A DNA stretch of 40,988 bases from a virus. The translations under genes and the position numbers were made by a program. The stretch lies in UHGV virus genome UHGV-0200626; one strand, given 5' to 3'. The notes under the pieces are model-generated. The model did not search any database. It was not told the origin of the DNA and saw nothing but the letters and a program-made list of their open reading frames with translations. Below, in pieces: positions 6,832-40,948 of the stretch. Positions within the stretch are counted from its first letter, which is position 1; each line of letters starts with the position of its first letter.

Positions 6832-7476
6832 ATGACATACGAAAATGACAAATTCCAGGTTCTGAAGAGCATGAAGGTGCCAGATGATTTTAAATCAAAT
6901 GGCTTTGTTTATGTGCTTTCTAATGAGTGCATGCCAGGAATTTATAAGATTGGGATGACTAAGCATTCACCAGAAGTTAGGGCTAAAGAAATTTCAGCCT
7001 CTACTGGCGTTCCTAAGCCATTTAAGGTGATAGCAGCCTTTCATTCAAATAATCCCGCATCAGATGAAAAACTCATTCATAAAGCCTTTGCAAAAGAGAG
7101 GCTTAGTGATAATCGAGAGTTTTTCAAGCTTGAAGATAATGAGCTTTCTGAATCTCTAAATGAAATAAGGGCGCTGGTTGGCCCTGAAAGAAATGGCGAG
7201 ACGGCAGAATACGCAATTTACGACTCATTCATTTCTTTTCGCCATGAAAATGAGCTTGATCTTAATGAGGAGCTTATAGAGCAAGGTCTGGGTAGTGTAG
7301 TTGGTCATCTTCCTGCGGTGAAAAATTTCCTTATTCGCGCCGGAATTGATTACGCGAAGCAACTGATAAGCAAATATAACTCATCGATAGTTATTAATAC
7401 AGATGGCAGTGTGGTGATGGTTAAGTCTCTTGAAGCCCAATGCTTTGATGCGGAGGTTGGAAATGAGCCTGGCTGA
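6832..7476 (+). CDS. T5orf172 (GIY-YIG-like) domain protein, accessory gene
   Basis: 214 aa; N-terminal GFVYVLSN...GIYKIGMTKHSPEVRAKEIS...PFKV...EKLIHKAFAKERL...REFFKL fits the T5orf172 pattern recalled from memory; AGGAG 5 nt upstream of ATG; inserted between cII and O. Confidence 0.55.
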   Translation: MTYENDKFQVLKSMKVPDDFKSNGFVYVLSNECMPGIYKIGMTKHSPEVRAKEISASTGVPKPFKVIAAFHSNNPASDEKLIHKAFAKERLSDNREFFKLEDNELSESLNEIRALVGPERNGETAEYAIYDSFISFRHENELDLNEELIEQGLGSVVGHLPAVKNFLIRAGIDYAKQLISKYNSSIVINTDGSVVMVKSLEAQCFDAEVGNEPG

Positions 7477-10065: not shown

Positions 10066-10272
10066 ATGACAAATCAGCAGCAAATAGAGTTCATCCTTGA
10101 GCAGATTCGAAAAATGCGAGAAAAGAACCAGCCAGACATGATGGAAATATGGAGACGCCAGCAGGAAGAATACCGCAAGCATATTTTTGGTGAGAGAAAA
10201 CAGGATGACTGGAGCCTATATGGCTATGGCACCAGGACAAATAAAAACGGATATAGCCTTTACACATATTGA
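10066..10272 (+). CDS. Hypothetical phage protein
   Basis: ATG at 10066 with AAGGAG 5 nt upstream. Confidence 0.45.
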   Translation: MTNQQQIEFILEQIRKMREKNQPDMMEIWRRQQEEYRKHIFGERKQDDWSLYGYGTRTNKNGYSLYTY

Positions 10273-10280
10273 GGAATTCC

Positions 10281-10691
10281 ATGAAACAGACAATTTTCCT
10301 CAGGAGTAAGCAACAACAGCAAGCCGCAATCACCGCCATCCTCGCAACACCACTCGATAAAGACAAGCCAGTTACCATCCGCATTACTGACTACAAGCGC
10401 AACCTTGACCAGAACGCAAAATTTCACGCGATGCTGGCGGATATCGCAAGTCAGGTTCAATGGTGCGGCAAATGGTTAAAACCAGAACAATGGAAGGTTT
10501 TGTTGATAAGCGGTCATGCAGTGGCAACAAAGCAGGAAGCTGATGTTTTGCCCGGCCTTGAAGGTGAATACGTCAACATTCGCGAAAGCAGCGCACAGAT
10601 GAGCGTGAAGCGCATGGCAAGCCTGATTGAGTACACGACAGCATGGGCTATTGGTCAGGGTGTCAGATTTACCGACAGGAGGTACGAATGA
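10281..10691 (+). CDS. ninB: NinB recombination protein
   Basis: Matches lambda NinB pattern (RSLDQN.K.....L.D...QV.W.G.WL....WK); ATG 10281 with GAGGA upstream. Confidence 0.75.
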
Positions 10692-10864
10692 GACGACAGC
10701 GACGAAGTTTCACCGACATAATCTGTGAAAACTGCAAATACCTTCCAACGAAACGCTCCAGAAATAAACGCAAGCCAATCCCAAAAGAATCTGACGTAAA
10801 AACCTTCAACTACACGGCTCACCTGTGGTATATCCGGTGGCTAAGAGAACGTGCGAGGAAATGA
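10688..10864 (+). CDS. ninE: NinE
   Basis: [58 protein letters not shown], nearly identical to lambda NinE from memory; AGGAGG upstream. Confidence 0.8.
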
Positions 10865-10866
10865 CA

Positions 10867-11286
10867 ATGGATTATTCACAGTTAAGTGATTTTGAAATTA
10901 ACAGACGAGTATGTGAGGCTTTAGATATGGAGGAGCATTTCTTCATACCTGATGACGAAGCAGACTTCGATTCTGAGATCCCCACTGACGAAAGAGGTCC
11001 TATTTGGCAGACGCAAAAAAGGGATATTAATGGCTTCCGTTCTTCAAACGGAAATTGCTTCAATCCTTGCAATAATCCTGAATACGCGTGGCCAATTATC
11101 ACTGAAAGCAAAATCAGCACTATGTGGATGACAGCGGAAAAAGAATGGTGCGCATGGTCAGGAGGTGATTTAGAGGAAGGTTGTTGTGAATGGGAAAATA
11201 TTCCTGGCTACTACTTCTGCGGTGAATCTCCACTCCGCGCCGCCATGATTGTATTTCTCATGATGCAGGACGCCAATAATGCTTAG
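10867..11286 (+). CDS. Hypothetical nin-region protein (Cys-rich)
   Basis: About 140 aa ORF; ATG 10867 with GAGGAA upstream. Confidence 0.5.
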   Translation: MDYSQLSDFEINRRVCEALDMEEHFFIPDDEADFDSEIPTDERGPIWQTQKRDINGFRSSNGNCFNPCNNPEYAWPIITESKISTMWMTAEKEWCAWSGGDLEEGCCEWENIPGYYFCGESPLRAAMIVFLMMQDANNA

Positions 11287-11464
11287 CCCATCCCAATCTC
11301 TTCAATACCAGAAAGAAAGCGTCGAGCGGGCTTTAACGTGCGCTAATTGCGGTCAGAAGCTGCATGTGCTGGAAGTTCACGTGTGTGAGCGTTGTATATA
11401 TGAATGCTTAAATATGGTGGAACATAATGAGAAATATAAGCAACATAGACGAATTAAGAAATAA
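11279..11464 (+). pseudogene. ninF: ninF disrupted by an endonuclease gene insertion
   Basis: First 37 codons match lambda NinF (MLSPSQSLQYQKESVERALTCANCGQKLHVLEVHVCE); the frame then runs into unrelated sequence. The missing NinF C-terminus (CAELMSDPNSSMYEEEDDE) is encoded at 11935..11994 after the inserted gene. Confidence 0.6.
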
Positions 11465-11933
11465 ATTATCATATGATGATGTTTTAGGTGTACTTAGATG
11501 GAAAGTGTCTCCTTCTAATAATGTTAAGGTTGGCAGTGTTGCTGGTTACATTAGAAGTGATGGTTATAGGATGTTAACTATCGATGGTGTAATTACTTAT
11601 GCTCACCACGTTATATGGATGATAAATAATGGTGAGATTCCATTAGGGTATAAAATTGATCATATAAATGGATTAAGGTCAGATAATAGGCTGTCTAATC
11701 TTCGATTGGTTACACACCAACAGAATGCACAGAACCAAAAGAGAAAAATAACCAATTCGTCAGGAGTGACTGGAGTATATTTCAATAAAGAGAGATGTAA
11801 GTGGATTGCGAATATATGCGTAGATGGGCGCACCAAATATCTTGGAATATTTGCTAGCATCATTGACGCTATTGCAGAAAGGAAGAGGACAGAAAAAGAA
11901 CTGGGTTTTCATGAAAACCATGGCAGACCATAA
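11391..11933 (+). mobile_element. Free-standing homing endonuclease gene insertion within ninF
   Basis: About 543 bp lying between the two halves of ninF, almost entirely occupied by an HNH-AP2 ORF. Confidence 0.5.
11427..11933 (+). CDS. HNH endonuclease with AP2 DNA-binding domain
   Basis: 168 aa; HNH core YKIDHINGLRSDNRLSNLRLVTHQQN and AP2-like segment SGVTGVYFNKERCKWIANICVDGRTKYLGIF. Confidence 0.75.
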   Translation: MRNISNIDELRNKLSYDDVLGVLRWKVSPSNNVKVGSVAGYIRSDGYRMLTIDGVITYAHHVIWMINNGEIPLGYKIDHINGLRSDNRLSNLRLVTHQQNAQNQKRKITNSSGVTGVYFNKERCKWIANICVDGRTKYLGIFASIIDAIAERKRTEKELGFHENHGRP

Positions 11934-11986
11934 CTGCGCAGAACTGATGAGCGATCCGAATAGCTCAATGTACGAGGAAGAAGACG

Positions 11987-12199
11987 ATGAGTGATTACCT
12001 GAAATGGTATCTCTGTTACCGCTGGTTAATTAAGTTTGCTGTAAAAGACTGGATGACAGCGGATGCCAACAAACTTAAGCAAAGAAAGGACTATTACTAC
12101 GCCAGAATGAAGGAAAACTACTGCTCAATTCGCACTCGCATATTTATTAAAAAAGACCTTCAGTCAATTCTTCAATTGCGAGGGAAGGTAAATGGCTAA
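11987..12199 (+). CDS. Hypothetical nin-region protein
   Basis: 70 aa ORF whose ATG overlaps the stop of the ninF remnant. Confidence 0.4.
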   Translation: MSDYLKWYLCYRWLIKFAVKDWMTADANKLKQRKDYYYARMKENYCSIRTRIFIKKDLQSILQLRGKVNG

Positions 12200-12482
12200 T
12201 CTACGCAAAGAAGCGCGCGGCAGAGAATGCCAGGTACGTATTTACGGCGTATGCAATGGCAATCCTGAAACTACAGTTCTGGCACATTACCGGATGGCTG
12301 GAATTTGCGGAACGGGAATGAAACCTGACGACATGATCGGCGCATGGGCTTGTAGCGCGTGTCACGATGAAATCGACCGACGCACCCATAATCTCGACAA
12401 CAAAGACGCCAGACTTTACCACCTCGAAGGCGTGATCAGGACGCAGGCGATACTGCTGAAGGAGGGGAAGATTAAGTCATGA
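12192..12482 (+). CDS. ybcO: YbcO-like protein (DUF1364, Cys/His-rich)
   Basis: 96 aa; MANLRKEARGRECQVRIYGVCNGNPETTVLAHYR...CSACHDEIDRRTH matches E. coli DLP12 YbcO from memory. Confidence 0.65.
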   Translation: MANLRKEARGRECQVRIYGVCNGNPETTVLAHYRMAGICGTGMKPDDMIGAWACSACHDEIDRRTHNLDNKDARLYHLEGVIRTQAILLKEGKIKS

Positions 12483-12841
12483 ACGAATATCAGTTTGTGC
12501 TTCCGTACCCGCCGTCGGTGAACACCTACTGGCGAAGACGGGAAAGCCAATACTACATCAGCGATAAAGGCCAGAAATACCGAAAAGACGTTCAGCAAAT
12601 CATTCGCCAACTCAAGTTAGACATTTTCACCAAATCACGACTCCGCATCAAAGTCATCGCAGACGTTCCAGATTCCCGCCGCCGCGACCTCGACAACATC
12701 CTGAAAGGTTTACTCGACTCCCTTATCCACGCCGGATTTGCGGAAGACGACGAGCAATTCGATGACATTCGCGTAATTCGTGGCGTGAAAGTACCAGGCG
12801 GACGGCTTGGAATAAAAATCACCGAACTGGAGAACGTATGA
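12479..12841 (+). CDS. rusA: RusA Holliday junction resolvase
   Basis: 120 aa; PDSRRRDLDNILKGLLDSLIHAGF and GGRLGIKITE correspond to RusA catalytic motifs (E. coli RusA PDRRRRDLDN...GGRLELTITE). Confidence 0.8.
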   Translation: MNEYQFVLPYPPSVNTYWRRRESQYYISDKGQKYRKDVQQIIRQLKLDIFTKSRLRIKVIADVPDSRRRDLDNILKGLLDSLIHAGFAEDDEQFDDIRVIRGVKVPGGRLGIKITELENV

Positions 12842-13026
12842 ACGCCACAATTCAAACGATACCAGAGCTTCTTATCCAGACACGAGGCAATCAGACCGAA
12901 GTGGCGATGATGCTTTCCTGCGCAAGAGGAACAGTGCTCAAGTACAACCGAGACAGTAAAGGCGAGCGTCACGTAATAGTTAACGGCGTCCTGATGGTCA
13001 AACAGGGAAAAAGGGGAAGGCCATGA
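12838..13026 (+). CDS. ninH: NinH
   Basis: TIPELLIQTRGNQTEVAMMLSCARGTVLKY...HVIVNGVLMV parallels lambda NinH (TIPDMLVEAYGNQTEVARRLKCSRGTVRKY...) from memory. Confidence 0.65.
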   Translation: MNATIQTIPELLIQTRGNQTEVAMMLSCARGTVLKYNRDSKGERHVIVNGVLMVKQGKRGRP

Positions 13027-13646
13027 GACTCGAAAGCGTAGCTAAATTTCATTCGCCAAAAAGCCCGATGATGAGCGACTCACCACGGGCCACGGCTTCT
13101 GACTCTCTTTCCGGTACTGATGTGATGGCTGCTATGGGGATGGCGCAATCACAAGCCGGATTCGGTATGGCTGCATTCTGCGGTAAGCACGAACTCAGCC
13201 AGAACGACAAACAAAAGGCTATCAACTATCTGATGCAATTTGCACACAAGGTATCGGGGAAATACCGTGGTGTGGCAAAGCTCGAAGGAAATACTAAGGC
13301 AAAGGTACTGCAAGTGCTCGCAACATTCGCTTATGCGGATTATTGCCGTAGTGCCGCGACGCCGGGGGCAAGATGCAGAGATTGCCACGGTACAGGCCGT
13401 GCGGTTGATATATCAAAAACAGAGCTGTGGGGGAGAGTTGTTGAGAAAGAATGCGGAAGATGCAAAGGTGTCGGCTATTCAAGAATGCCAGCAAGCGCCG
13501 CATATCGCGCTGTGACGATGCTAATACCCAACCTTACCCAACCAACCTGGTCACGCACTGTTAAGCCGCTGTATGACGCTCTGGTGGTGCAATGCCACAA
13601 GGAAGAGTCAATCGCAGACAACATTTTGAATGCGGTCACACGTTAG
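13023..13646 (+). CDS. Q: Late-gene antiterminator Q (lambda-type)
   Basis: 207 aa beginning MRLESVAKFHSPKSPMMSDSPRATASDSLSGTDVMAAMGMAQSQAGFGMAAFCGKHE, which to my recollection is essentially lambda Q; followed by a lambda-type PR'. Confidence 0.85.
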   Translation: MRLESVAKFHSPKSPMMSDSPRATASDSLSGTDVMAAMGMAQSQAGFGMAAFCGKHELSQNDKQKAINYLMQFAHKVSGKYRGVAKLEGNTKAKVLQVLATFAYADYCRSAATPGARCRDCHGTGRAVDISKTELWGRVVEKECGRCKGVGYSRMPASAAYRAVTMLIPNLTQPTWSRTVKPLYDALVVQCHKEESIADNILNAVTR

Positions 13647-13821: not shown

Positions 13822-14238
13822 TTAAGGGAGGGTTTTCATTACGCTATCAATCTCCCTTCCTTCAAATCTTGAAGTCCAGCCGCAGGAGCCGCAATGGTAA
13901 GGAAAGTCATCGAACCCGCTACCGACCTGTTTAAGACAGTTGGGGCAATAAACCGCGCTGATATACCCACCCGCGGGATTTTTTCTAAAGGCCGCACCCA
14001 TGTGCTCGACAAACTCATCCTTTGCCCGATAAGCCGCTATTTCCTTCTCAAGTTCTACGTTCTTGGCTTTCGCCTCGGCAAGTTCTGCTATGGTGGCAGC
14101 ATGGGCTTTTTGAAGTACGTCGATCTGCTCTCCAATGAAAGCGATGCGCTCGCGCAGGACCTCGTTACTTTGCACAGCAGAAAGCGCGCCGATCCCGTTT
14201 TTAAGGGACGCGATAAGTAATCCTACATCCATGGTCAT
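13822..14238 (-). CDS. Coiled-coil plus C-terminal zinc-ribbon protein, antisense accessory gene between PR' and holin
   Basis: 138 aa ORF on the strand opposite to late transcription; C-terminus CPNCLKQVG...YHCGSCGW (four Cys); AGGGA SD before the second ATG at 14232. Confidence 0.5.
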   Translation of the reverse strand: MTMDVGLLIASLKNGIGALSAVQSNEVLRERIAFIGEQIDVLQKAHAATIAELAEAKAKNVELEKEIAAYRAKDEFVEHMGAAFRKNPAGGYISAVYCPNCLKQVGSGFDDFPYHCGSCGWTSRFEGREIDSVMKTLP

Positions 14239-32727: not shown

Positions 32728-33657
32728 ATGAAAAGTATAGCAACAGCAGTATCTACTATCAACGTGCCATTCCACGGCGCAGAGCTTTATGTCGTCAATC
32801 ACAACGGTGAACCGTACACCCCAATGAAACCTATCGTTGAAGGCATGGGTATGGATTGGGCTTCACAGTTTACGAAAATAAAGCAACGGTTTAAAACCTG
32901 CATTGTGAAAATCACAATGCAGCTTCCTGGCGATGAACAGTGCCGTGAGATTATTTGTTTGGCACTTCGCAAACTTGCTGGCTGGCTGCAAACCATCAGT
33001 CCTAACAAAGTTCGCCCTGAAATCCGCGACAAGGTAATCCAGTATCAGGAAGAGTGTGACGATGTCCTATACGAGTACTGGACTAAAGGCCATGTAGTTA
33101 ACCCACGCAAAGCTAAAAAGGCGTTGCCGGGTAAAATCACCACTGAACAGCAGGAAGCCATTAAACAACTCGTCATGAGTCGCGGTCAGTCTCTGCCAAA
33201 AGAAAAACAGGCGAAGGCGATGATCACCATGTGGTCGTCACTGAAATCCCATTTTGGATGTTCGTACAAAGAAATCAGTGAGGAGCAGTTTACCGAAGCA
33301 CTATCACTTGCAGCTCGAGTTCCACTTGAAGGTGAGTTCATTGGCAAACAAGAGAAGAAAACCAGCGAGCTTTCTGCAAAAGAAGCAAACAGCCTTGTAT
33401 GGTTATGGGATTATGCCAACCGTTCACAGGCATTATTCCGCGAACTGTATCCGGCGCTAAAACAAGTTCAATCGAACTATTCCGGCAGATGCTACGACTA
33501 CGGTCATGAATTCTCGTATGTTATCGGAATGGCGAGAGACGTTTTAATCAATCACACACGAGATGTTGATATCAATGAGCCAGACGGACCAGCGAATCTT
33601 TCCGCATGGATGAGACTTAAGAATAAAGAATTACCTCCTTCAGTACATAACTACTGA
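32728..33657 (+). CDS. ant: Antirepressor (Ant, AntA-type N-terminal domain)
   Basis: 309 aa; N-terminal VPFHGAELYVVNHNGEPYTPMKPIVEGMGMDW fits the antirepressor N-terminal pattern; downstream of arc as in P22 immI. Confidence 0.65.
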   Translation: MKSIATAVSTINVPFHGAELYVVNHNGEPYTPMKPIVEGMGMDWASQFTKIKQRFKTCIVKITMQLPGDEQCREIICLALRKLAGWLQTISPNKVRPEIRDKVIQYQEECDDVLYEYWTKGHVVNPRKAKKALPGKITTEQQEAIKQLVMSRGQSLPKEKQAKAMITMWSSLKSHFGCSYKEISEEQFTEALSLAARVPLEGEFIGKQEKKTSELSAKEANSLVWLWDYANRSQALFRELYPALKQVQSNYSGRCYDYGHEFSYVIGMARDVLINHTRDVDINEPDGPANLSAWMRLKNKELPPSVHNY

Positions 33658-33767: not shown

Positions 33768-34262
33768 TTATCTAAAACAAGCAAACTCGCCATGATATTT
33801 TTCCCTGAATGCAATAGACATCAATTCGGCCAGCTCAATATCATCGGTATACCCAAGGCAAATAGACTTACCTTTTAGTTTGAACATAACTTTATATGTG
33901 TTTTTCCCTTTAAGAAGATGAACTCCTTTTATACCTGTATTGGATGATGAAACGCTGTTGGTTTTATTCTGACCTCTGGTTACTTCTCTTAGGTTTGAAA
34001 TTCTATTGTCATTTTTAACCCCGTTAATATGGTCAATTAACCCTTTAGGCCAGCATCCTTTCATATAAAACCAAGCAAGTCGGTGGCAAAGATACGATTT
34101 TCCATTAATCCGTATTGATAAGTAGTCGGCCTGTGAGTTCGTCTTAAATCCAGCAACCTTTCCGATACTGGAGCTACCAGAAGCTATCTTCCAAGTGAAG
34201 ACGCCTGTTTCTGGGTTGTAGTTGAGTGAAGAGGTTAATTCTTTATGAGTAATCATATTCAT
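33768..34262 (-). CDS. HNH endonuclease with AP2 domain (second copy)
   Basis: 164 aa; HNH core GLIDHINGVKNDNRISNLREVTRGQN and AP2-like TGIKGVHLLKGKNTYKVMFKLKGKSICLGY; paralogous at protein level to the ORF at 11427..11933. Confidence 0.7.
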   Translation of the reverse strand: MNMITHKELTSSLNYNPETGVFTWKIASGSSSIGKVAGFKTNSQADYLSIRINGKSYLCHRLAWFYMKGCWPKGLIDHINGVKNDNRISNLREVTRGQNKTNSVSSSNTGIKGVHLLKGKNTYKVMFKLKGKSICLGYTDDIELAELMSIAFREKYHGEFACFR

Positions 34263-34282: not shown

Positions 34283-36118
34283 ATGTCAAATATTGTGCCA
34301 AATGTTATAATTTCAATGCCAAGTCAACTATTTACGTTAGCCAGAAAATTCCAGGCCGCAAGCAATGGCAAGATATTCATTGGTAAGATAGATTCCGATC
34401 CTACGCTCCCACAGAATCAAGTGCAGGTTTATGTGGAAAACGAAGACGGTTCTCACGTTCCTGTTTCGCAACCAATAATCATTAACGCTGCTGGTTACCC
34501 TGTATATAACGGACAGATTGCCAAATTCGTAACTGAGCAAGGCCATTCTATGGCTGTTTATGATGCGTATGGTGCACAGCAGTTCAAATTCCCAAATGTG
34601 CTGAAGTATGATCCTGACAGACTTGCTCAAAAACTGGAGAGTGAATTTGGAACTAAATATATAGGAGCTCCGTCAGGTGGCGGGACTCTTTATGATATGC
34701 TGTGGTTTGTAACTCCAGCACAATTTGGAGCCCCAGAAGATGGGAGCGATGCATCATCCTCATTACAGGAAATGCTTGATTACGCTACACTAAACGGTAA
34801 GGCAGTATTATTCGATAAAGCGATTACATATAACATAGAAAAGCCGTTAATATATAAGCAAAAAGGATTTCGTAACAGCCGTATTCTTTGCTATGGTGGA
34901 CGAACAGTAATAAATCTAAACTCTTCAACAGCGACTTCCGGATTGCCTAATGATGAAAGCGGAATTGTTATGGATGTTAATGCTGCAATTGTTGTGTCGT
35001 CAACAAACCCGGACACCGCGGTAGTAAACCAACCACAGGCTGTATATATAGAAGGGTTGCAATTCACTTCAACTGCTGGCGGCTCCTACGGAATTTACCT
35101 TGGGAAAACACAGAACACAAATATTAACGATTGTAAGTTTACAGGATTCACTGAAGCTGATATCTGCGATAACGGTTCATGGGTATTCCGAGTTCATGGC
35201 TGCCAAAATTTTAGCGCAGCCAACTACGGTATATGGAAAAAAGCAGGTACATCTGCATGGATTACAGAGTGTTATTTCCAGAACTCTAACTATGCAGTGC
35301 GAATGAAGAGTGGGTACTCTGTTATATCCAAGTGCGCTAATGATTTTACTAAAAATGCCGCATATTGGCTTGAGTCATCGGATTATAACAGTGTATATAC
35401 TATTGATGAGTGTGGTTTTGAGAACTCAGGTTCAGATGCTGTTGTTAAAGTTTCTGGGCGTATTGCACTCACATGGTCTAACTGTATGGCCGGTAACATT
35501 GAATCTCAACAGTCACCTGTTCCTACAAATTTACTCTGGGTTCAGGGCGACAGCAACGGTTCTCAGTTTACACTGAGCAATATTAGATTCCTCAATACTG
35601 GTCGTCGCATATGGGATTTAGGGACTAATAGCCGCTTCACCATTAACCGTGTCAACCATGCCTCAGGTGGCTTAGCGGATGTATGGGGGGATGGCGCGCT
35701 TGTCAATGAAAACACCTATAACACCACCAAGTATATGTCCGCCGCCTACCCCAATGGTTTTCAGATTGGACCAACAGGACTTAGCGACTGGTTCTCATCA
35801 GGCGGAAACACTGGCTCATTACCAAACGACCAAAGATTTTTGAGGTACTCCAAGACGATTACCAGAGCATCTGGTCAGAGTTTTGGAACAACAACAATAA
35901 CGTTACCATTTCAGTTGAGTGTCGATGGTGAGGGGTATCAGGTTATTGTCACTCCGAGAGAGTATCCAAATAACGTCCCTACGTATCAATGGCATTGCGC
36001 AAGTTATAATCATACATCCACTGATGTTCAGATTATAGCTGGTCGTGGTGATGGCAACACAGCATGGTCAACAGTTATTGTTGACATATTAATAATTGGA
36101 AAAGCGATAAACTTTTAA
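34283..36118 (+). CDS. Tailspike: P22 gp9-like N-terminal head-binding domain with a different receptor-binding domain
   Basis: Residues 1 to about 110 match P22 gp9 (GKIFIGKIDSDP...VYVENEDGSHV...VLKYDPD); the remainder is unrelated and rich in N/G/S/T as in beta-helix depolymerases. Confidence 0.8.
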   Translation: MSNIVPNVIISMPSQLFTLARKFQAASNGKIFIGKIDSDPTLPQNQVQVYVENEDGSHVPVSQPIIINAAGYPVYNGQIAKFVTEQGHSMAVYDAYGAQQFKFPNVLKYDPDRLAQKLESEFGTKYIGAPSGGGTLYDMLWFVTPAQFGAPEDGSDASSSLQEMLDYATLNGKAVLFDKAITYNIEKPLIYKQKGFRNSRILCYGGRTVINLNSSTATSGLPNDESGIVMDVNAAIVVSSTNPDTAVVNQPQAVYIEGLQFTSTAGGSYGIYLGKTQNTNINDCKFTGFTEADICDNGSWVFRVHGCQNFSAANYGIWKKAGTSAWITECYFQNSNYAVRMKSGYSVISKCANDFTKNAAYWLESSDYNSVYTIDECGFENSGSDAVVKVSGRIALTWSNCMAGNIESQQSPVPTNLLWVQGDSNGSQFTLSNIRFLNTGRRIWDLGTNSRFTINRVNHASGGLADVWGDGALVNENTYNTTKYMSAAYPNGFQIGPTGLSDWFSSGGNTGSLPNDQRFLRYSKTITRASGQSFGTTTITLPFQLSVDGEGYQVIVTPREYPNNVPTYQWHCASYNHTSTDVQIIAGRGDGNTAWSTVIVDILIIGKAINF

Positions 36119-36257: not shown

Positions 36258-37451
36258 TTACTCCACCTTTTCATCAAGCCAGTCCGCCCACCACTGCATC
36301 ATTTCTCTGCGCTTATCGAGATACTGAGCATGGTTGTAAATCCCGCGCACAGATCCGCCGTTGGCATGTGCCAGTTGCACTTCAATAGCATCAGCAGGCC
36401 ATTCGTGCTCGTTCATAATCGTGCTGAATTCATGCCTGAATCCGTGACCGCTTTCCAGACCCTCATAGCCAATTTGTTTGATCACAAGCAATACCGCGTT
36501 CTCGCAGATTGGCTTCTTCTTATCGTTGCGACCGGCAAAAACAAACTCTGATACTGGTTTAGTGATTGAGCTTAGCGTAGTGAGAAGTTCAACCACCTGG
36601 TCTGACATAGGAACCACATGAATTTTGCGTCCCTTCATCACACTGGCGTCGATGGTGATAATCCTGTTTTCAAAATCGACGTTCTTCCATAGCATGGAAC
36701 GAAGCTCTTTTGTTCTGAGGGCTGTGTAGCGTAAAACTTTGGTCGCAATGAGCGATACGATGCTTCCTGAAAATGTTGCCAGTGCTTTGTTAAATGCCGG
36801 GATCTGGTCTGCAGGAAGAAACGGGAAGTTTTTCTTGCGGTATCCCTTCATGGCGTCAGCAAGGTCAGGTGCCGGGTTATATTTAGCCCTACCAGTGACA
36901 ATAGCGTAACGGAAAACCTCGCCGCATCTTCTGCGGGCTTTGTTGGCTCGCTCCATTGCACCGCGATCTTCAAATCTGCGGATTACTTCCAGCAGTTGCA
37001 TCGGCTCAATATCCTGAATTTCAAGGCCGCCGATGATAGGTAAAATGTCGTCATCAAACATTTTTGCAAGTTCAGTCGCATACCCTACTGACCAGACTTG
37101 CTTCTTGTGCTCGTACCATTCCTTGTAAATCGCACTAAAGGAATTGTTGTTAGACGAAGCCTTTTTCGCCTTTACCGGATCGATGCCAACCGAGATGTCT
37201 TTCCTCGCAGTCCATGCCTTATCCCTTGCCTCCTGCAAAGTCATTAGCGGATATTTTCCTACGGTCAGGATTTTCTCCTTACCGTCAATCTTGTAGCGAA
37301 GCTGCCATACCTTTTTCCCGGATACAGGGACATAAAGGTACAGGCCATTACCATCGAGAAGGCGGTATGGTTTTTCTTTCGGCTTTGCTGCTTCAATCTG
37401 CTTAACAGTGAGCATGAGTAAAAATCCGGTGGGTAAAATTATTTTATCCAC
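36258..37451 (-). CDS. intS: Tyrosine integrase (CPS-53 IntS-like)
   Basis: 397 aa; C-terminal catalytic residues within HGFRHEF and RGIYNHAQY; immediately downstream of the tRNA 3' end. Confidence 0.85.
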   Translation of the reverse strand: MDKIILPTGFLLMLTVKQIEAAKPKEKPYRLLDGNGLYLYVPVSGKKVWQLRYKIDGKEKILTVGKYPLMTLQEARDKAWTARKDISVGIDPVKAKKASSNNNSFSAIYKEWYEHKKQVWSVGYATELAKMFDDDILPIIGGLEIQDIEPMQLLEVIRRFEDRGAMERANKARRRCGEVFRYAIVTGRAKYNPAPDLADAMKGYRKKNFPFLPADQIPAFNKALATFSGSIVSLIATKVLRYTALRTKELRSMLWKNVDFENRIITIDASVMKGRKIHVVPMSDQVVELLTTLSSITKPVSEFVFAGRNDKKKPICENAVLLVIKQIGYEGLESGHGFRHEFSTIMNEHEWPADAIEVQLAHANGGSVRGIYNHAQYLDKRREMMQWWADWLDEKVE

Positions 37452-37576
37452 TTTTTACCCGTCATGGAGTGCGGCTGTCAACGATCTGACGCGAACCATT
37501 ACGAACTGTGAATCTACGGAAGGCTTGATATTCAGGGGATTTTGCGGACTGGTACGGATGGGAGCGAACTGATAAA

Positions 37577-37651
37577 TGGTGTCCCCTGCAGGAATCGAAC
37601 CTGCAATTAGCCCTTAGGAGGGGCTCGTTATATCCATTTAACTAAGAGGAC
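37577..37651 (-). tRNA. argW: tRNA-Arg (anticodon CCU), argW-like
   Basis: Reverse complement reads GTCCTCTTAGTTAAATGGATATAACGAGCCCCTCCTAAGGGCTAATTGCAGGTTCGATTCCTGCAGGGGACACCA (75 nt) with acceptor stem, CCT anticodon in a CTCCTAA loop, GGTTCGATTCC T-arm and CCA end. Confidence 0.95.
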
Positions 37652-37662
37652 AATGCGGCATG

Positions 37663-37691
37663 AGTATACCCGCTAATGGAGTGCGGGGTAA
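37663..37691 (-). promoter_or_regulatory. Candidate promoter for the tRNA gene
   Basis: Minus-strand TATACT about 11 nt upstream of the tRNA 5' end, with TTACCC 17 bp further upstream; not a strong consensus match. Confidence 0.3.
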
Positions 37692-37726
37692 GTACGCTGC
37701 CGCTCGATTGCTTAAACCCTCGCCAT

Positions 37727-38659
37727 TTATGCCGGGTTTTTATCATTTTTCTTAATGTTTTCCGCACGTTCTGCTTTTTGGCGTGCTTCTGCTTTACGCT
37801 TGTTGCTCATGTCGTTACGAATCTGTGCATGACTCATTAACGCGAAGATAAAGGTGCCGCCGCAGATGTTCCCCGCTAAAGTAGGTAGTGCGAAGGGCCA
37901 GATGAAATCGCTCCAGTGCAGCGTACCGTTAAACACCAGATAGAGGATTTCAACAGAACCGACCACGATATGGGTGGTGTCACCCAGGGCAATAAGCCAG
38001 GTCATCAATATAATCACCACAATCTTTGCCGCACCTGCTGCAGGAAACATCCATACCATAGTGGCGATCAGCCAGCCGGAAATGATCGCGTTGGCAAACA
38101 TCTCGCTGGGGGTGTTCTTCATCACATCCATGCCGATTTTGACAAATGCATCGCGAGTTTCTTCATTGAAGATAGGCATATATTCAAATGCCCACGCAGC
38201 AATACCAGTCCCGAGAATATTACCCAGCAGCACGACTCCCCATAACCGCATAAGTAAGCCAACGTTGCTCATTGTCGGTTTTTGCATGACGGGTAGTACC
38301 GCAGTCACGGTGTTTTCGGTAAATAATTGCTGGCGGGCCATTATGACGATAATAAAACCAAAGGTATAACCGAGATTCTCCAGTAAGAAGCTGCCCGGCA
38401 CACCTTCCAGTTCGACATGAAATATCCCTTTTGCCAGTAACGAAGCGCCCATCGACAGACCCGCCGCAATGGCTGACCACAGTAGCGCCATTGCGTCGCG
38501 TTCCAGCTCTTTTTCACCATCCTGGCGGATATGCTCATGAATTGCCATCGCCCGGGAGGGGAGTCGGTCTTCATCTATTTCTATTTTTTTGCCGCGCTCT
38601 TTTTCTTCGCTCTCAACTTCAATTTCGTCGCTGTGTTGATCAATTTTGTCGTTGTCCAT
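37727..38659 (-). CDS. yfdC: Inner membrane protein, YfdC-like (formate/nitrite transporter family)
   Basis: 310 aa polytopic membrane protein; same position and length as E. coli yfdC next to argW. Confidence 0.65.
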   Translation of the reverse strand: MDNDKIDQHSDEIEVESEEKERGKKIEIDEDRLPSRAMAIHEHIRQDGEKELERDAMALLWSAIAAGLSMGASLLAKGIFHVELEGVPGSFLLENLGYTFGFIIVIMARQQLFTENTVTAVLPVMQKPTMSNVGLLMRLWGVVLLGNILGTGIAAWAFEYMPIFNEETRDAFVKIGMDVMKNTPSEMFANAIISGWLIATMVWMFPAAGAAKIVVIILMTWLIALGDTTHIVVGSVEILYLVFNGTLHWSDFIWPFALPTLAGNICGGTFIFALMSHAQIRNDMSNKRKAEARQKAERAENIKKNDKNPA

Positions 38660-38952
38660 GGTCTCTTCTCTTGAATTAGCACGTATAGCTAAAGCGTAGC
38701 GGCTTTTTTGCTCGCAACTGGCGGGAGTTACTCTGAAAATGTAGAAAAGGCTGCGTTTGCCTTTTTCTGTTTCTATAGAATCAAGTAGCCTACAGGGCGG
38801 CGATTACCAGGCTATGATCAAATCAGCAAATCAGGGCGTCTGGACATCAGTTGACGTGCTGTTACAATCGCCCACACCTAAACAGGCGGATACGGTATCG
38901 TTCCGTCATGGATGGCAAACTGCATAAGCCATAAAAAAACAGGGAGACATTT

Positions 38953-39708
38953 ATGAAGCTTCGCCTGTCGGCGCTTGCTCTGGGAACTACGCTTCTGGTG
39001 GGGTGTGCGAGTTCCGGCACAGATCAGCAAGGGCGTTCTGACCCGTTAGAAGGGTTCAACCGCACCATGTACAACTTCAACTTCAATGTATTAGACCCGT
39101 ATATTGTTCGACCGGTCGCTGTCGCCTGGCGTGATTATGTTCCGCAACCGGCGCGTAACGGTTTGAGCAACTTTACTGGCAACCTTGAAGAACCTGCGGT
39201 GATGGTTAACTACTTCTTGCAGGGCGACCCTTATCAGGGGATGGTCCACTTTACCCGCTTTTTCCTGAACACCATTTTGGGGATGGGCGGTTTTATTGAT
39301 GTTGCAGGGATGGCGAACCCGAAACTGCAACGGACTGAACCTCACCGCTTCGGTAGTACGCTTGGTCATTATGGCGTGGGTTATGGGCCTTACGTCCAGT
39401 TACCGTTCTACGGTAGCTTCACGCTGCGTGATGACGGTGGTGATATGGCGGATGGGCTTTACCCGGTTCTTTCCTGGCTGACCTGGCCGATGTCTGTGGG
39501 TAAATGGACGCTTGAAGGGATAGAAACTCGTGCGCAGTTGTTGGATTCCGATGGTCTGCTGCGTCAGTCGTCCGATCCTTATATTATGGTGCGCGAAGCG
39601 TACTTCCAGCGTCATGATTTCATCGCTAATGGCGGCGAACTCAAACCGCAGGAAAATCCGAACGCACAAGCGATTCAGGATGATTTAAAAGATATTGATT
39701 CTGAATAA
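38953..39708 (+). CDS. mlaA: MlaA (VacJ) outer-membrane lipoprotein
   Basis: 251 aa; lipobox LLVGC; sequence recognised as E. coli MlaA from memory. Confidence 0.8.
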   Translation: MKLRLSALALGTTLLVGCASSGTDQQGRSDPLEGFNRTMYNFNFNVLDPYIVRPVAVAWRDYVPQPARNGLSNFTGNLEEPAVMVNYFLQGDPYQGMVHFTRFFLNTILGMGGFIDVAGMANPKLQRTEPHRFGSTLGHYGVGYGPYVQLPFYGSFTLRDDGGDMADGLYPVLSWLTWPMSVGKWTLEGIETRAQLLDSDGLLRQSSDPYIMVREAYFQRHDFIANGGELKPQENPNAQAIQDDLKDIDSE

Positions 39709-39715
39709 GAAACAA

Positions 39716-39750
39716 ATAAAAAAGGTGAGTCGCAAAACTCACCTTTTTTG
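39716..39750 (+). terminator. Intrinsic terminator downstream of mlaA
   Basis: GGTGAGT-cgcaaa-ACTCACC followed by TTTTTTG, with an A-run on the 5' side. Confidence 0.65.
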
Positions 39751-39889
39751 TTGTTATCCCTCAATTACCACAAGTAAAAGGAGATAAACCGACAATGACC
39801 CGGACGTAATGATGTAAAAATACTGATGTTCGTCACTGACTATTTCCGATATTCAGGCGTTGAAAAATCAAAAAACTGGAAAAATAATT

Positions 39890-40948
39890 TTAAATATCAT
39901 CAAAATTAACACCTGGCGCAGATAGTTGATTAATTTCATTTTGATATTTCGCCTGGCGATTTTGAAGTCTTTTTTCAACGTTATCTTCGAGATCCTTAAA
40001 GTCTTTGTATTTATTTTCAGGATGGTCAACGTCAACTTTGTTAGCGAATAAATTAGAAATTATTTCTTTTACATTATCGCGTCTAAATTTTGCATCGTCC
40101 ACTTGAAAATTATATCTTATTGCTCGACCTAAACGTTTAAAAACTTCGTTAGGTTCTCTCAGTCTTTCCCCGTTGAGCTCGTTTATAACCTGATGATCGG
40201 AACCTGTTGCAAATGATTCTGCCATGATAGCTTTACTGCTTTCAAACCACGCTGAAGCACTCCTGGCGTTTTCACTACAATATTGGGTGAGACTATCACC
40301 ATTAATACGAATTCCTCTTTGAATGTGGTAGTCGTCCTGATCGTAGTAACCGAGAGATAAGTAATCATTTCCGTTTTTATTTTTAATTACAATAGCGAGA
40401 GAGTCGCCTTTTTTATCTTTACCGTACCAGGTAAATAAGTCCGTTGGTTCGCTTTTCCCGCTCTCATCAAATTCCGTTACCGTATGTCTGAGTTTGTGTG
40501 ATATCTTATCGAAGATAAAACCAGGATCTCCATCATATATTTCTTTTAATGCGCTGAAGATCATTTCCTTGTTATTGATATCATGAGTCTTCTCAACTAT
40601 GTTGTCATTAATGATAGTACGGACGAGTTCTTTGTCTTTATAGTTCGCAGGTAATTCTATTGGTTCTTGGTTGTCGATACCAATAGTAATATGGTCTGTA
40701 TCATTGGAGTCAATATCAATATAAGTAACTGAGGAATTATTAATATTAAATCTATAAGGATCGTCGTTTACTCGTATGGCGTTTTTTATAAGCTCAAGTA
40801 GATGTTTAATACAGGTGCTTATTCCTTCCTTACCATTAAAAAGGTTTTTGAACTCTTGTACTAATCCATTAACTTCATCATTGTTATTTTCATTGATGGA
40901 TTCTGGGTAAGCTGCGCTGGTATTGTTGATTGAAATAGATGGTAGCAT
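39890..40948 (-). CDS. yfdF: Uncharacterised protein, YfdF-like
   Basis: 352 aa, Asn/Lys/Asp-rich, in a visibly AT-rich segment; length and position match E. coli yfdF. Confidence 0.55.
   Translation of the reverse strand: MLPSISINNTSAAYPESINENNNDEVNGLVQEFKNLFNGKEGISTCIKHLLELIKNAIRVNDDPYRFNINNSSVTYIDIDSNDTDHITIGIDNQEPIELPANYKDKELVRTIINDNIVEKTHDINNKEMIFSALKEIYDGDPGFIFDKISHKLRHTVTEFDESGKSEPTDLFTWYGKDKKGDSLAIVIKNKNGNDYLSLGYYDQDDYHIQRGIRINGDSLTQYCSENARSASAWFESSKAIMAESFATGSDHQVINELNGERLREPNEVFKRLGRAIRYNFQVDDAKFRRDNVKEIISNLFANKVDVDHPENKYKDFKDLEDNVEKRLQNRQAKYQNEINQLSAPGVNFDDI

Follow-up and report, generated by a model that had tools for sequence, protein, structure and literature searches.

A free-standing HNH endonuclease gene inserted in ninF of a P22-like Escherichia coli prophage

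What divides the ninF gene of UHGV virus genome UHGV-0200626, and how did the dividing element come to be there? The window, by which we mean the whole 40,988-nucleotide stretch analyzed here, is a P22-like (Lederbergvirus-type) Escherichia coli prophage with a typical nin region, in which ninF (11279-11994) is interrupted. The original prediction was that a free-standing HNH-AP2 homing endonuclease gene splits ninF, and this is borne out by an uninterrupted ninF that occurs in the same context without exactly 539 base pairs (bp) present in the window. We regard it as virtually certain that the element is a free-standing HNH endonuclease gene inserted in ninF. The parts of the interrupted gene described below are all on the plus strand.

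Alignment to intact ninF loci, proposed as a check when the interruption was first noticed, defines the junctions and places the inserted block at 11396-11934. The genome of phage vB_EcoP-683R2 has the same NinX-NinF-70aa-YbcO-RusA-NinH-Q order as the window, with flanks that are ~97% identical, and it encodes an intact NinF of 58 amino acids that lacks exactly the 539-bp block. With a slash marking the insertion point, the intact junction reads ...GTGTGTGAGCACTGC/TGCGCAGAACTG... and the window reads ...GTGTGTGAGCGTTGT/ATATATG...CCATAAC/TGCGCAGAACTG..., a placement that is ambiguous by 1 nucleotide. The junctions are the same in 46 of 46 insert-bearing loci, and each has a 539-bp insert. The block contains a 31-nucleotide leader (11396..11426) with a Shine-Dalgarno-like GGTGGA at 11416-11421, a 507-nucleotide open reading frame (ORF; 11427..11933) and one further base. 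It had been described as about 543 bp and essentially just the ORF; the size needed correction and the description of the content was right, as 507 of the 539 bp are ORF and 32 nucleotides are not. The G+C content of the insert is 34.7%, compared to 49.7% for the ninF segments and 47.6% for the rest of the nin region.

By sequence comparison, both flanking segments derive from ninF. The 5′ segment (11279..11395) contains codons 1-39, matches Pfam NinF and is collinear with the NinF of phage 683R2. Its frame starts with the ATG at 11279 and reads MLSPSQSLQYQKESVERALTCANCGQKLHVLEVHVCERC, followed by 22 unrelated residues and a stop at 11462-11464. An earlier count of 37 codons matching lambda NinF has to be revised: 39 codons are collinear with intact NinF, with H38R as the single substitution, and the N-terminus is that of the P22/Lederbergvirus-type allele (the lambda type would be MIDQNRSYEQ). 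The 3′ remnant (11935..11994) contains the last 19 codons and the stop of ninF, in a frame that differs from those of the 5′ segment and the endonuclease gene. It encodes CAELMSDPNSSMYEEEDDE followed by the stop, the same as the final 19 residues of intact vB_EcoP-683R2 NinF, in agreement with the prediction that the NinF C-terminus follows the endonuclease stop in a separate frame. The three pieces are in three frames (start coordinates modulo 3 are 2, 0 and 1). The insertion point is directly after the fourth cysteine, at the end of the second CxxC motif, so that the CxxC-x11-CxxC core is retained whole. None of the copies has a decayed 3′ remnant, and the polymorphisms of the remnant are those of intact alleles.

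The ORF encodes a protein of 168 amino acids, with an HNH_3 domain followed by a predicted AP2-fold domain. It matches the Pfam HNH_3 profile over residues 58-102 (E = 1.8e-18, 66.3 bits with a cut-off of 24.8) and PHROG 99, “HNH endonuclease” (E = 2e-68). In an alignment of 41 homologues, D78, N91 and N103 are invariant and H79, N87 and N100 are nearly so, and the HNH motif aligns with the DHKDGN...N of I-HmuI. The AlphaFold2 model has a predicted local distance difference test (pLDDT) value of 90.5. Its best Protein Data Bank (PDB) match by Foldseek is I-HmuI, 1u3e (E = 1.4e-3, probability 1.00), with an overall template modeling (TM) score of only 0.45 because the domain arrangement differs. 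The C-terminal part of the model contains strands at 117-120, 125-132 and 135-142 and a helix at 145-159, a sheet and helix that match the AP2 domains of 7et5 (root-mean-square deviation 1.2 Å over 46 columns, probability 1.00) and 1gcc (probability 0.99).

The AP2 part of the predicted HNH-AP2 architecture requires some qualification. The HNH part is supported by the HNH_3 profile, but the window copy does not reach the threshold of Pfam AP2 (PF00847), scoring 14.6-16.7 bits against 33.3 over residues 112-143 (E from 0.04 to 0.009). Sixteen of the 41 homologues match this profile (best E = 3e-8). We consider HNH-AP2 a fair label for the architecture because the homologues and the predicted fold support AP2, despite the sub-threshold profile score. 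The nearest relatives outside ninF are HNH genes that are ~50% identical, in unrelated Klebsiella, Escherichia and Salmonella phages, and are annotated as homing endonucleases. The protein models as an I-HmuI-like HNH_3 endonuclease with a predicted C-terminal AP2-fold DNA-binding domain.

The interrupted gene now encodes a 61 amino acid product (11279..11464), consisting of the 39 NinF residues and 22 residues read from the insert (IYECLNMVEHNEKYKQHRRIKK). Judging from the reading frames, full-length NinF cannot be made from this allele. The 61 amino acid product matches the complete 25-position Pfam NinF model (PF05810; E = 6.4e-12, 45.6 bits with a cut-off of 27.5). It carries the RefSeq label “protein NinF” in E. 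coli genomes and is also found in protein clusters P0082-P0088. The acidic tail of NinF is the sole loss, and a basic 22-residue extension is in its place. The earlier statement that the invasion inactivated ninF is thus an assumption, because the four-cysteine core and the Pfam domain stay complete in the truncated product. There is no convincing translation start ahead of the 3′ remnant at 11935-11994.

The interrupted form occurs in a small minority of ninF loci. Of 5,426 complete E. coli genomes, 1,695 contain ninF-like DNA (roughly 2,100 ninF places in all) and 44 contain the interrupted form (at least 97.6% identity), including E2348/69 and B7A. This is ~2.6% of the ninF-bearing genomes, and every copy is in ninF. 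In a 45th E. coli genome the element is further broken by an IS3. We found 30 insert-bearing loci in IMG/VR, and ninF is uninterrupted in 121 of 121 sampled intact loci from that database. The possibility that the interrupted architecture is the norm for ninF is refuted by these loci and by all but 44 of the 1,695 E. coli genomes. The named carriers are all E. coli, and no carrier was identified among the GTDB species representatives, which were scanned with six short peptide patterns of the query protein.

The insert is found on many backgrounds. The 46 insert-bearing loci have eight upstream and eight downstream sequence contexts, nearly all of which also occur with intact ninF. The upstream neighbors include NinX, NinE or another ORF, and the downstream neighbors include the 70 amino acid ORF, NinG, a KilAC antirepressor, another HNH gene, and others. 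On the left of the insert the ninF exon has 16 haplotypes and on the right 8, and they occur in 22 combinations; nine of the left and five of the right haplotypes are identical to insert-free alleles. Polymorphisms at -87, -67, -49, +33 and +37 have similar frequencies with and without the insert. The contexts, haplotypes and shared polymorphisms therefore indicate repeated crossovers within a few tens of bp of the insert. Such a pattern is what one would expect of break-induced gene conversion with short co-conversion tracts. It does not prove homing, since ninF is itself conserved and the region around it is highly mosaic.

The endonuclease ORF is intact in 44 of the 46 copies. The 17 distinct intact-ORF sequences vary at 12 synonymous and 10 nonsynonymous sites, over ~105 and ~399 sites, respectively, giving a ratio of nonsynonymous to synonymous polymorphism per site (pN/pS) of ~0.22. 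An intact ORF and a ratio of this size would fit an active, repeatedly homing element. The two decayed copies are that of E. coli Eco_70239, which contains an IS3-family transposase (L008:763-1991), and one with a 1-nucleotide frameshift (L048).

Three substitutions adjoin the left junction, at 11391, 11392 and 11395, and change CACTGC to CGTTGT (His38Arg and a silent Cys change). All 46 carriers have CGTTGT as the six bases immediately before the insert. The same six bases in 121 intact IMG/VR alleles are CACTGC (111), CACTGT (5), TACTGC (4) or CTCTGC (1), so that the insert-linked base is present in 0 of 121 intact loci at the first two sites and in 5 of 121 at the third. At the protein level, “CERC” is found exclusively together with the insert-derived tail. 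We searched for an insert-free CGTTGT allele, which could be the product of precise loss of the insert or an ancestral donor, in the complete E. coli genomes with a 47-nucleotide synthetic junction query and among the 121 intact IMG/VR loci, and found none in either set. Most simply, the three substitutions would be flanking donor sequence that moves along with the element; a further possibility is that they shield the carrier allele from cleavage.

One diverged copy of the arrangement was identified. A single 909-bp contig (L009) contains an endonuclease gene 83% identical to that of the window, at the homologous point of a diverged ninF. It reads ...IHVCEKC/ATATATG...AAC/GQMLEKDDG and a stop, followed by ybcO, with boundaries as in the E. 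coli-type insert. As in the window, TGT is the last codon before the insert and is preceded by the codon of a basic residue. The ybcO of this contig is only ~74% identical to that of any sequenced phage. The association of this endonuclease lineage with ninF may be old because the 83% relative occupies the homologous ninF site. The suggestion that the invasion was recent accordingly holds within the E. coli lambdoid pool, where E. coli-type copies differ by at most 1.6%, the insert is at ~2.6% frequency and the remnant is undecayed; it may not hold for the association as a whole.

The insert-linked bases are also part of a predicted RNA hairpin (11391-11444; free energy -11.6 kcal/mol, z ~-2.1), whose bottom stem uses GUUGU. 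In the predicted fold, part of the endonuclease start codon is base-paired and the Shine-Dalgarno sequence lies in the loop. The hairpin is weaker, at -9.1 kcal/mol, when the ancestral ACUGC is restored, and has no counterpart in the diverged L009 copy. As a candidate for translational control, this marginal and unconserved fold is a lead only.

The insertion of a homing endonuclease gene into ninF, followed by spread through repeated homing, is the best explanation of these data and in our judgment highly probable. The endonuclease gene would be transcribed as part of the delayed-early nin operon, and a Shine-Dalgarno site of its own, which lies within the reading frame of the truncated ninF, would serve for its translation. 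When insert-bearing and insert-free lambdoid genomes are present in one cell, the enzyme would nick or cut the insert-free ninF near the insertion site, and repair off the insert-bearing copy would move the gene with very short flanking tracts. Repeated transfers of this kind would put the element into many ninF alleles and phage backgrounds. Comparison of the copies suggests that the element is probably homing now or did so very recently.

Several observations weigh against spread by homing. None of the 215 INPHARED isolated phage records with ninF contains the insert, which may be a sampling effect, many of the records being Salmonella phages. The pN/pS of ~0.22 is based on just 22 sites and ignores transition bias, and loci L010-L020 were picked by exact protein identity and are non-independent samples. 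The diverged lineage rests on one 909-bp contig because scans of IMG/VR and metagenome contigs gave the E. coli-type element only and no second copy of the 83% lineage. Ordinary or Red-mediated lambdoid recombination could also have shuffled a block that was inserted once and is immobile. Developed further, this last point gives an account in which a single old insertion became a passenger, spread by homologous or Red-mediated recombination with the endonuclease uninvolved. The gene ninF is a natural crossover point because it is 95-99% conserved across phages with unrelated neighbors, and neutral ninF polymorphisms are likewise shuffled among contexts. Yet recombination of this type would need repeated crossovers no more than 49 bp to the left and 33 bp to the right of the insert, and an ORF that is intact in 44 of 46 copies under a pN/pS of ~0.22, with conserved catalytic residues, is unexpected for a useless passenger. 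We consider an immobile passenger unlikely.

Two further accounts concern what the insert does to NinF. Splicing of a group I or group II intron or of an intein that carries the endonuclease would restore NinF, and many HNH endonucleases are intron-encoded, including I-HmuI and I-TevIII (PMC2988022). Here, however, the insert has just 31 nucleotides before and 1 nucleotide after an ORF that is homologous to free-standing enzymes over residues 4-166. A permissive Rfam search of 10800-12500 (cmscan, E up to 10) identified no convincing family; the two hits, FAM13A-AS1_2 (E = 0.076) and sucC (E = 6.9), are to unrelated families with scores far under gathering. The endonuclease frame is unlike both ninF frames and the 5′ frame stops at 11462, and at E up to 10 Pfam gives only HNH_3 and a weak AP2 match in the endonuclease ORF, with no intein-type domain. 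We conclude that the element is neither an intron nor an intein, as the original prediction had it, because the three frames differ and there is no convincing Rfam match; a splicing element has only a vanishingly small chance of being correct. NinF function might instead survive in pieces, on the model of the mobE-split nrdA of phage Aeh1, either through the 61 amino acid product alone or with the 19-residue acidic tail supplied in trans from an internal ATG (11911 or 11920). Insertion after the last zinc-binding cysteine keeps the Pfam NinF core, the 3′ remnant is undecayed in every copy, PGAP calls “protein NinF” ORFs of 27-50 amino acids over the remnant, and there are precedents (PMC2988022). 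Against this, neither ATG is preceded by a recognizable Shine-Dalgarno sequence, and recent spread with ongoing exchange with intact alleles explains the remnant equally well. There may also be nothing to preserve, as lambda can do without the nin region in the laboratory (nin5). Retained function in pieces thus seems improbable to us; it is compatible with insertion and repeated homing and is not an alternative to them. A different role for the element itself is that of an inter-phage weapon that cuts the insert-free ninF of competitors, comparable to marker exclusion by T-even endonucleases, with second-CxxC variants as resistance alleles and the junction substitutions recruited into a translational-control hairpin (11391-11444). 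If true, induction or co-infection would bring expression of the endonuclease along with that of the delayed-early operon, and there would be an arms race at the ninF site. We treat the weapon as speculative and quite doubtful.

The second CxxC motif shows variation in intact NinF as well. Its inner two residues are hypervariable (EH, SD, EA, EY, GH and SC; P0091-P0178) in a core that otherwise hardly varies. In the window this variable pair (11385-11395) is right at the endonuclease insertion site. Relaxed constraint could account for the variability, as could selection for resistant target sites.

We found no paper that links ninF with a homing endonuclease or describes the arrangement. In RefSeq the pieces are labeled NinF, HNH and NinF. 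In E308, 14EC007 and E2348/69 (L004-L006), RefSeq/PGAP annotates the endonuclease gene as an incomplete pseudogene, though the 168-codon ORF is intact. In the same three genomes a 50 amino acid “protein NinF” is called across the 3′ end of the endonuclease gene, in an alternative frame. The pseudogene and 50 amino acid NinF calls look like an annotation artefact. We flag this as an annotation problem: an intact endonuclease gene is called a pseudogene and ninF fragments are called “protein NinF.”

The nin region around the interrupted gene encodes NinB (10269-10691) and NinX (10825-11286) upstream. Downstream is a 70 amino acid nin-region ORF of PHROG 3973 (11987-12199, plus strand), whose ATG overlaps the ninF stop (ATGAGTGA). 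We count this ORF as context because the insert alters translation just upstream of it. It is followed by YbcO (12192-12482), RusA (12479-12841), NinH (12838-13026) and, at the downstream end of the order, Q (13023-13646). A promoter and terminator scan of 11000-12300 gave no signal that exceeded the shuffled expectation.

Elsewhere in the prophage, we identified other candidate mobile genes. A second HNH_3 ORF of 164 amino acids (33768-34262, minus strand; Pfam E = 4e-15) is located between the antirepressor (32728-33657) and tailspike (34283-36118) genes. It is probably another free-standing homing endonuclease gene because it has 32% identity to the ninF-borne enzyme and the same domain layout. 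Between the cII-like and O-like replication genes is a 214 amino acid ORF (6832-7476, plus strand) with T5orf172/MUG113 domains (E ~1e-15). We take this domain to belong to the GIY-YIG-like nuclease superfamily, which would make the ORF a third candidate mobile nuclease gene. Between Q and the holin gene, a 138 amino acid ORF runs on the opposite strand (13822-14238, minus strand); it has no Pfam match and looks like a moron-type insert. The contig annotations call this gene too, at L010:10396-10812.

The interval 36258-40948 covers the right end of the prophage together with the integration site. The region contains an integrase (36258-37451, minus strand) and a tRNA-Arg(CCT) (37577-37651, minus strand), and beyond the tRNA a formate/nitrite-transporter family gene (37727-38659, minus strand) and MlaA (38953-39708, plus strand). 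The site is presumably argW, which adjoins yfdC and mlaA in the E. coli K-12 gene order.

Free-standing endonuclease genes that split phage genes are known from other systems. One is mobE in nrdA of Aeromonas phage Aeh1 (Friedrich et al. 2007, cited in PMC2988022); PMC2988022 also covers mobA, which splits T4 gene 39/60, and, in phage 25, a seg gene at gene 43. An endonuclease gene also divides nrdD of FelixO1-like phages (PMC4837284). As in Aeh1 mobE, T4 mobA and FelixO1-like nrdD, the ninF element is an HNH-family gene without an intron or intein that divides a coding gene into separate frames, and like Aeh1 mobE and the related cases it is found in some related phages and absent from others. 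The Aeh1, T4 and FelixO1-like hosts are large lytic phages, whereas the host of the ninF element is a temperate lambdoid prophage. The split genes of the Aeh1 type encode essential enzymes whose pieces reassemble; ninF is a 58 amino acid accessory gene, and its 3′ piece has 19 codons and no evident translation start.

Among individual enzymes, I-HmuI (1u3e), an HNH nicking homing endonuclease of Bacillus phage SPO1, shares the HNH_3-type catalytic core and is the sole significant-range PDB sequence match over the HNH motif. It differs in being intron-encoded and in having another C-terminal DNA-binding module, and the identity is ~21%. HNH-AP2 homing endonucleases have the domain order of the predicted protein, in which an AP2-fold sheet of three strands plus a helix follows the HNH domain, and the model matches the AP2 domains of TEM1 and ERF1. 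The difference is that the window copy is under the Pfam AP2 threshold. Magnani and co-workers are said to have proposed in 2004 that phage and cyanobacterial HNH-AP2 homing endonucleases are ancestors of plant AP2/ERF domains.

The closest counterparts in setting are intergenic HNH genes of lambdoid nin regions, which share the family (37-38% identity), the operon and the pattern of presence and absence; the ninF-borne gene differs in being inside a coding sequence. One example, in E. coli Ecol_276 (L002:4201-4725), separates ybcO from rusA; another, in 14EC007 (L005:2648-3214), separates ninF from ninG. In 14EC007 the ninF 3′ remnant is flanked on both sides by endonuclease genes. As a whole, the nin region looks like a hotspot for HNH genes.

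A free-standing endonuclease in a phage gene is of a known kind, and no new mechanism is revealed here. The ninF case has a temperate lambdoid setting and an unusually clean population-genetic record. Homing by free-standing endonucleases has been worked out mainly in T-even phages, and the ninF case is in lambdoid phages of E. coli, the most tractable system of phage genetics. It offers a useful system with a small, dispensable target, natural insert-bearing and insert-free partners in the same context, and dozens of independent-looking transfers with very short co-conversion tracts. The locus would suit as a model for endonuclease-driven mosaicism of temperate phages, for target-site immunity, and for the way selfish genes shape prophage pools.

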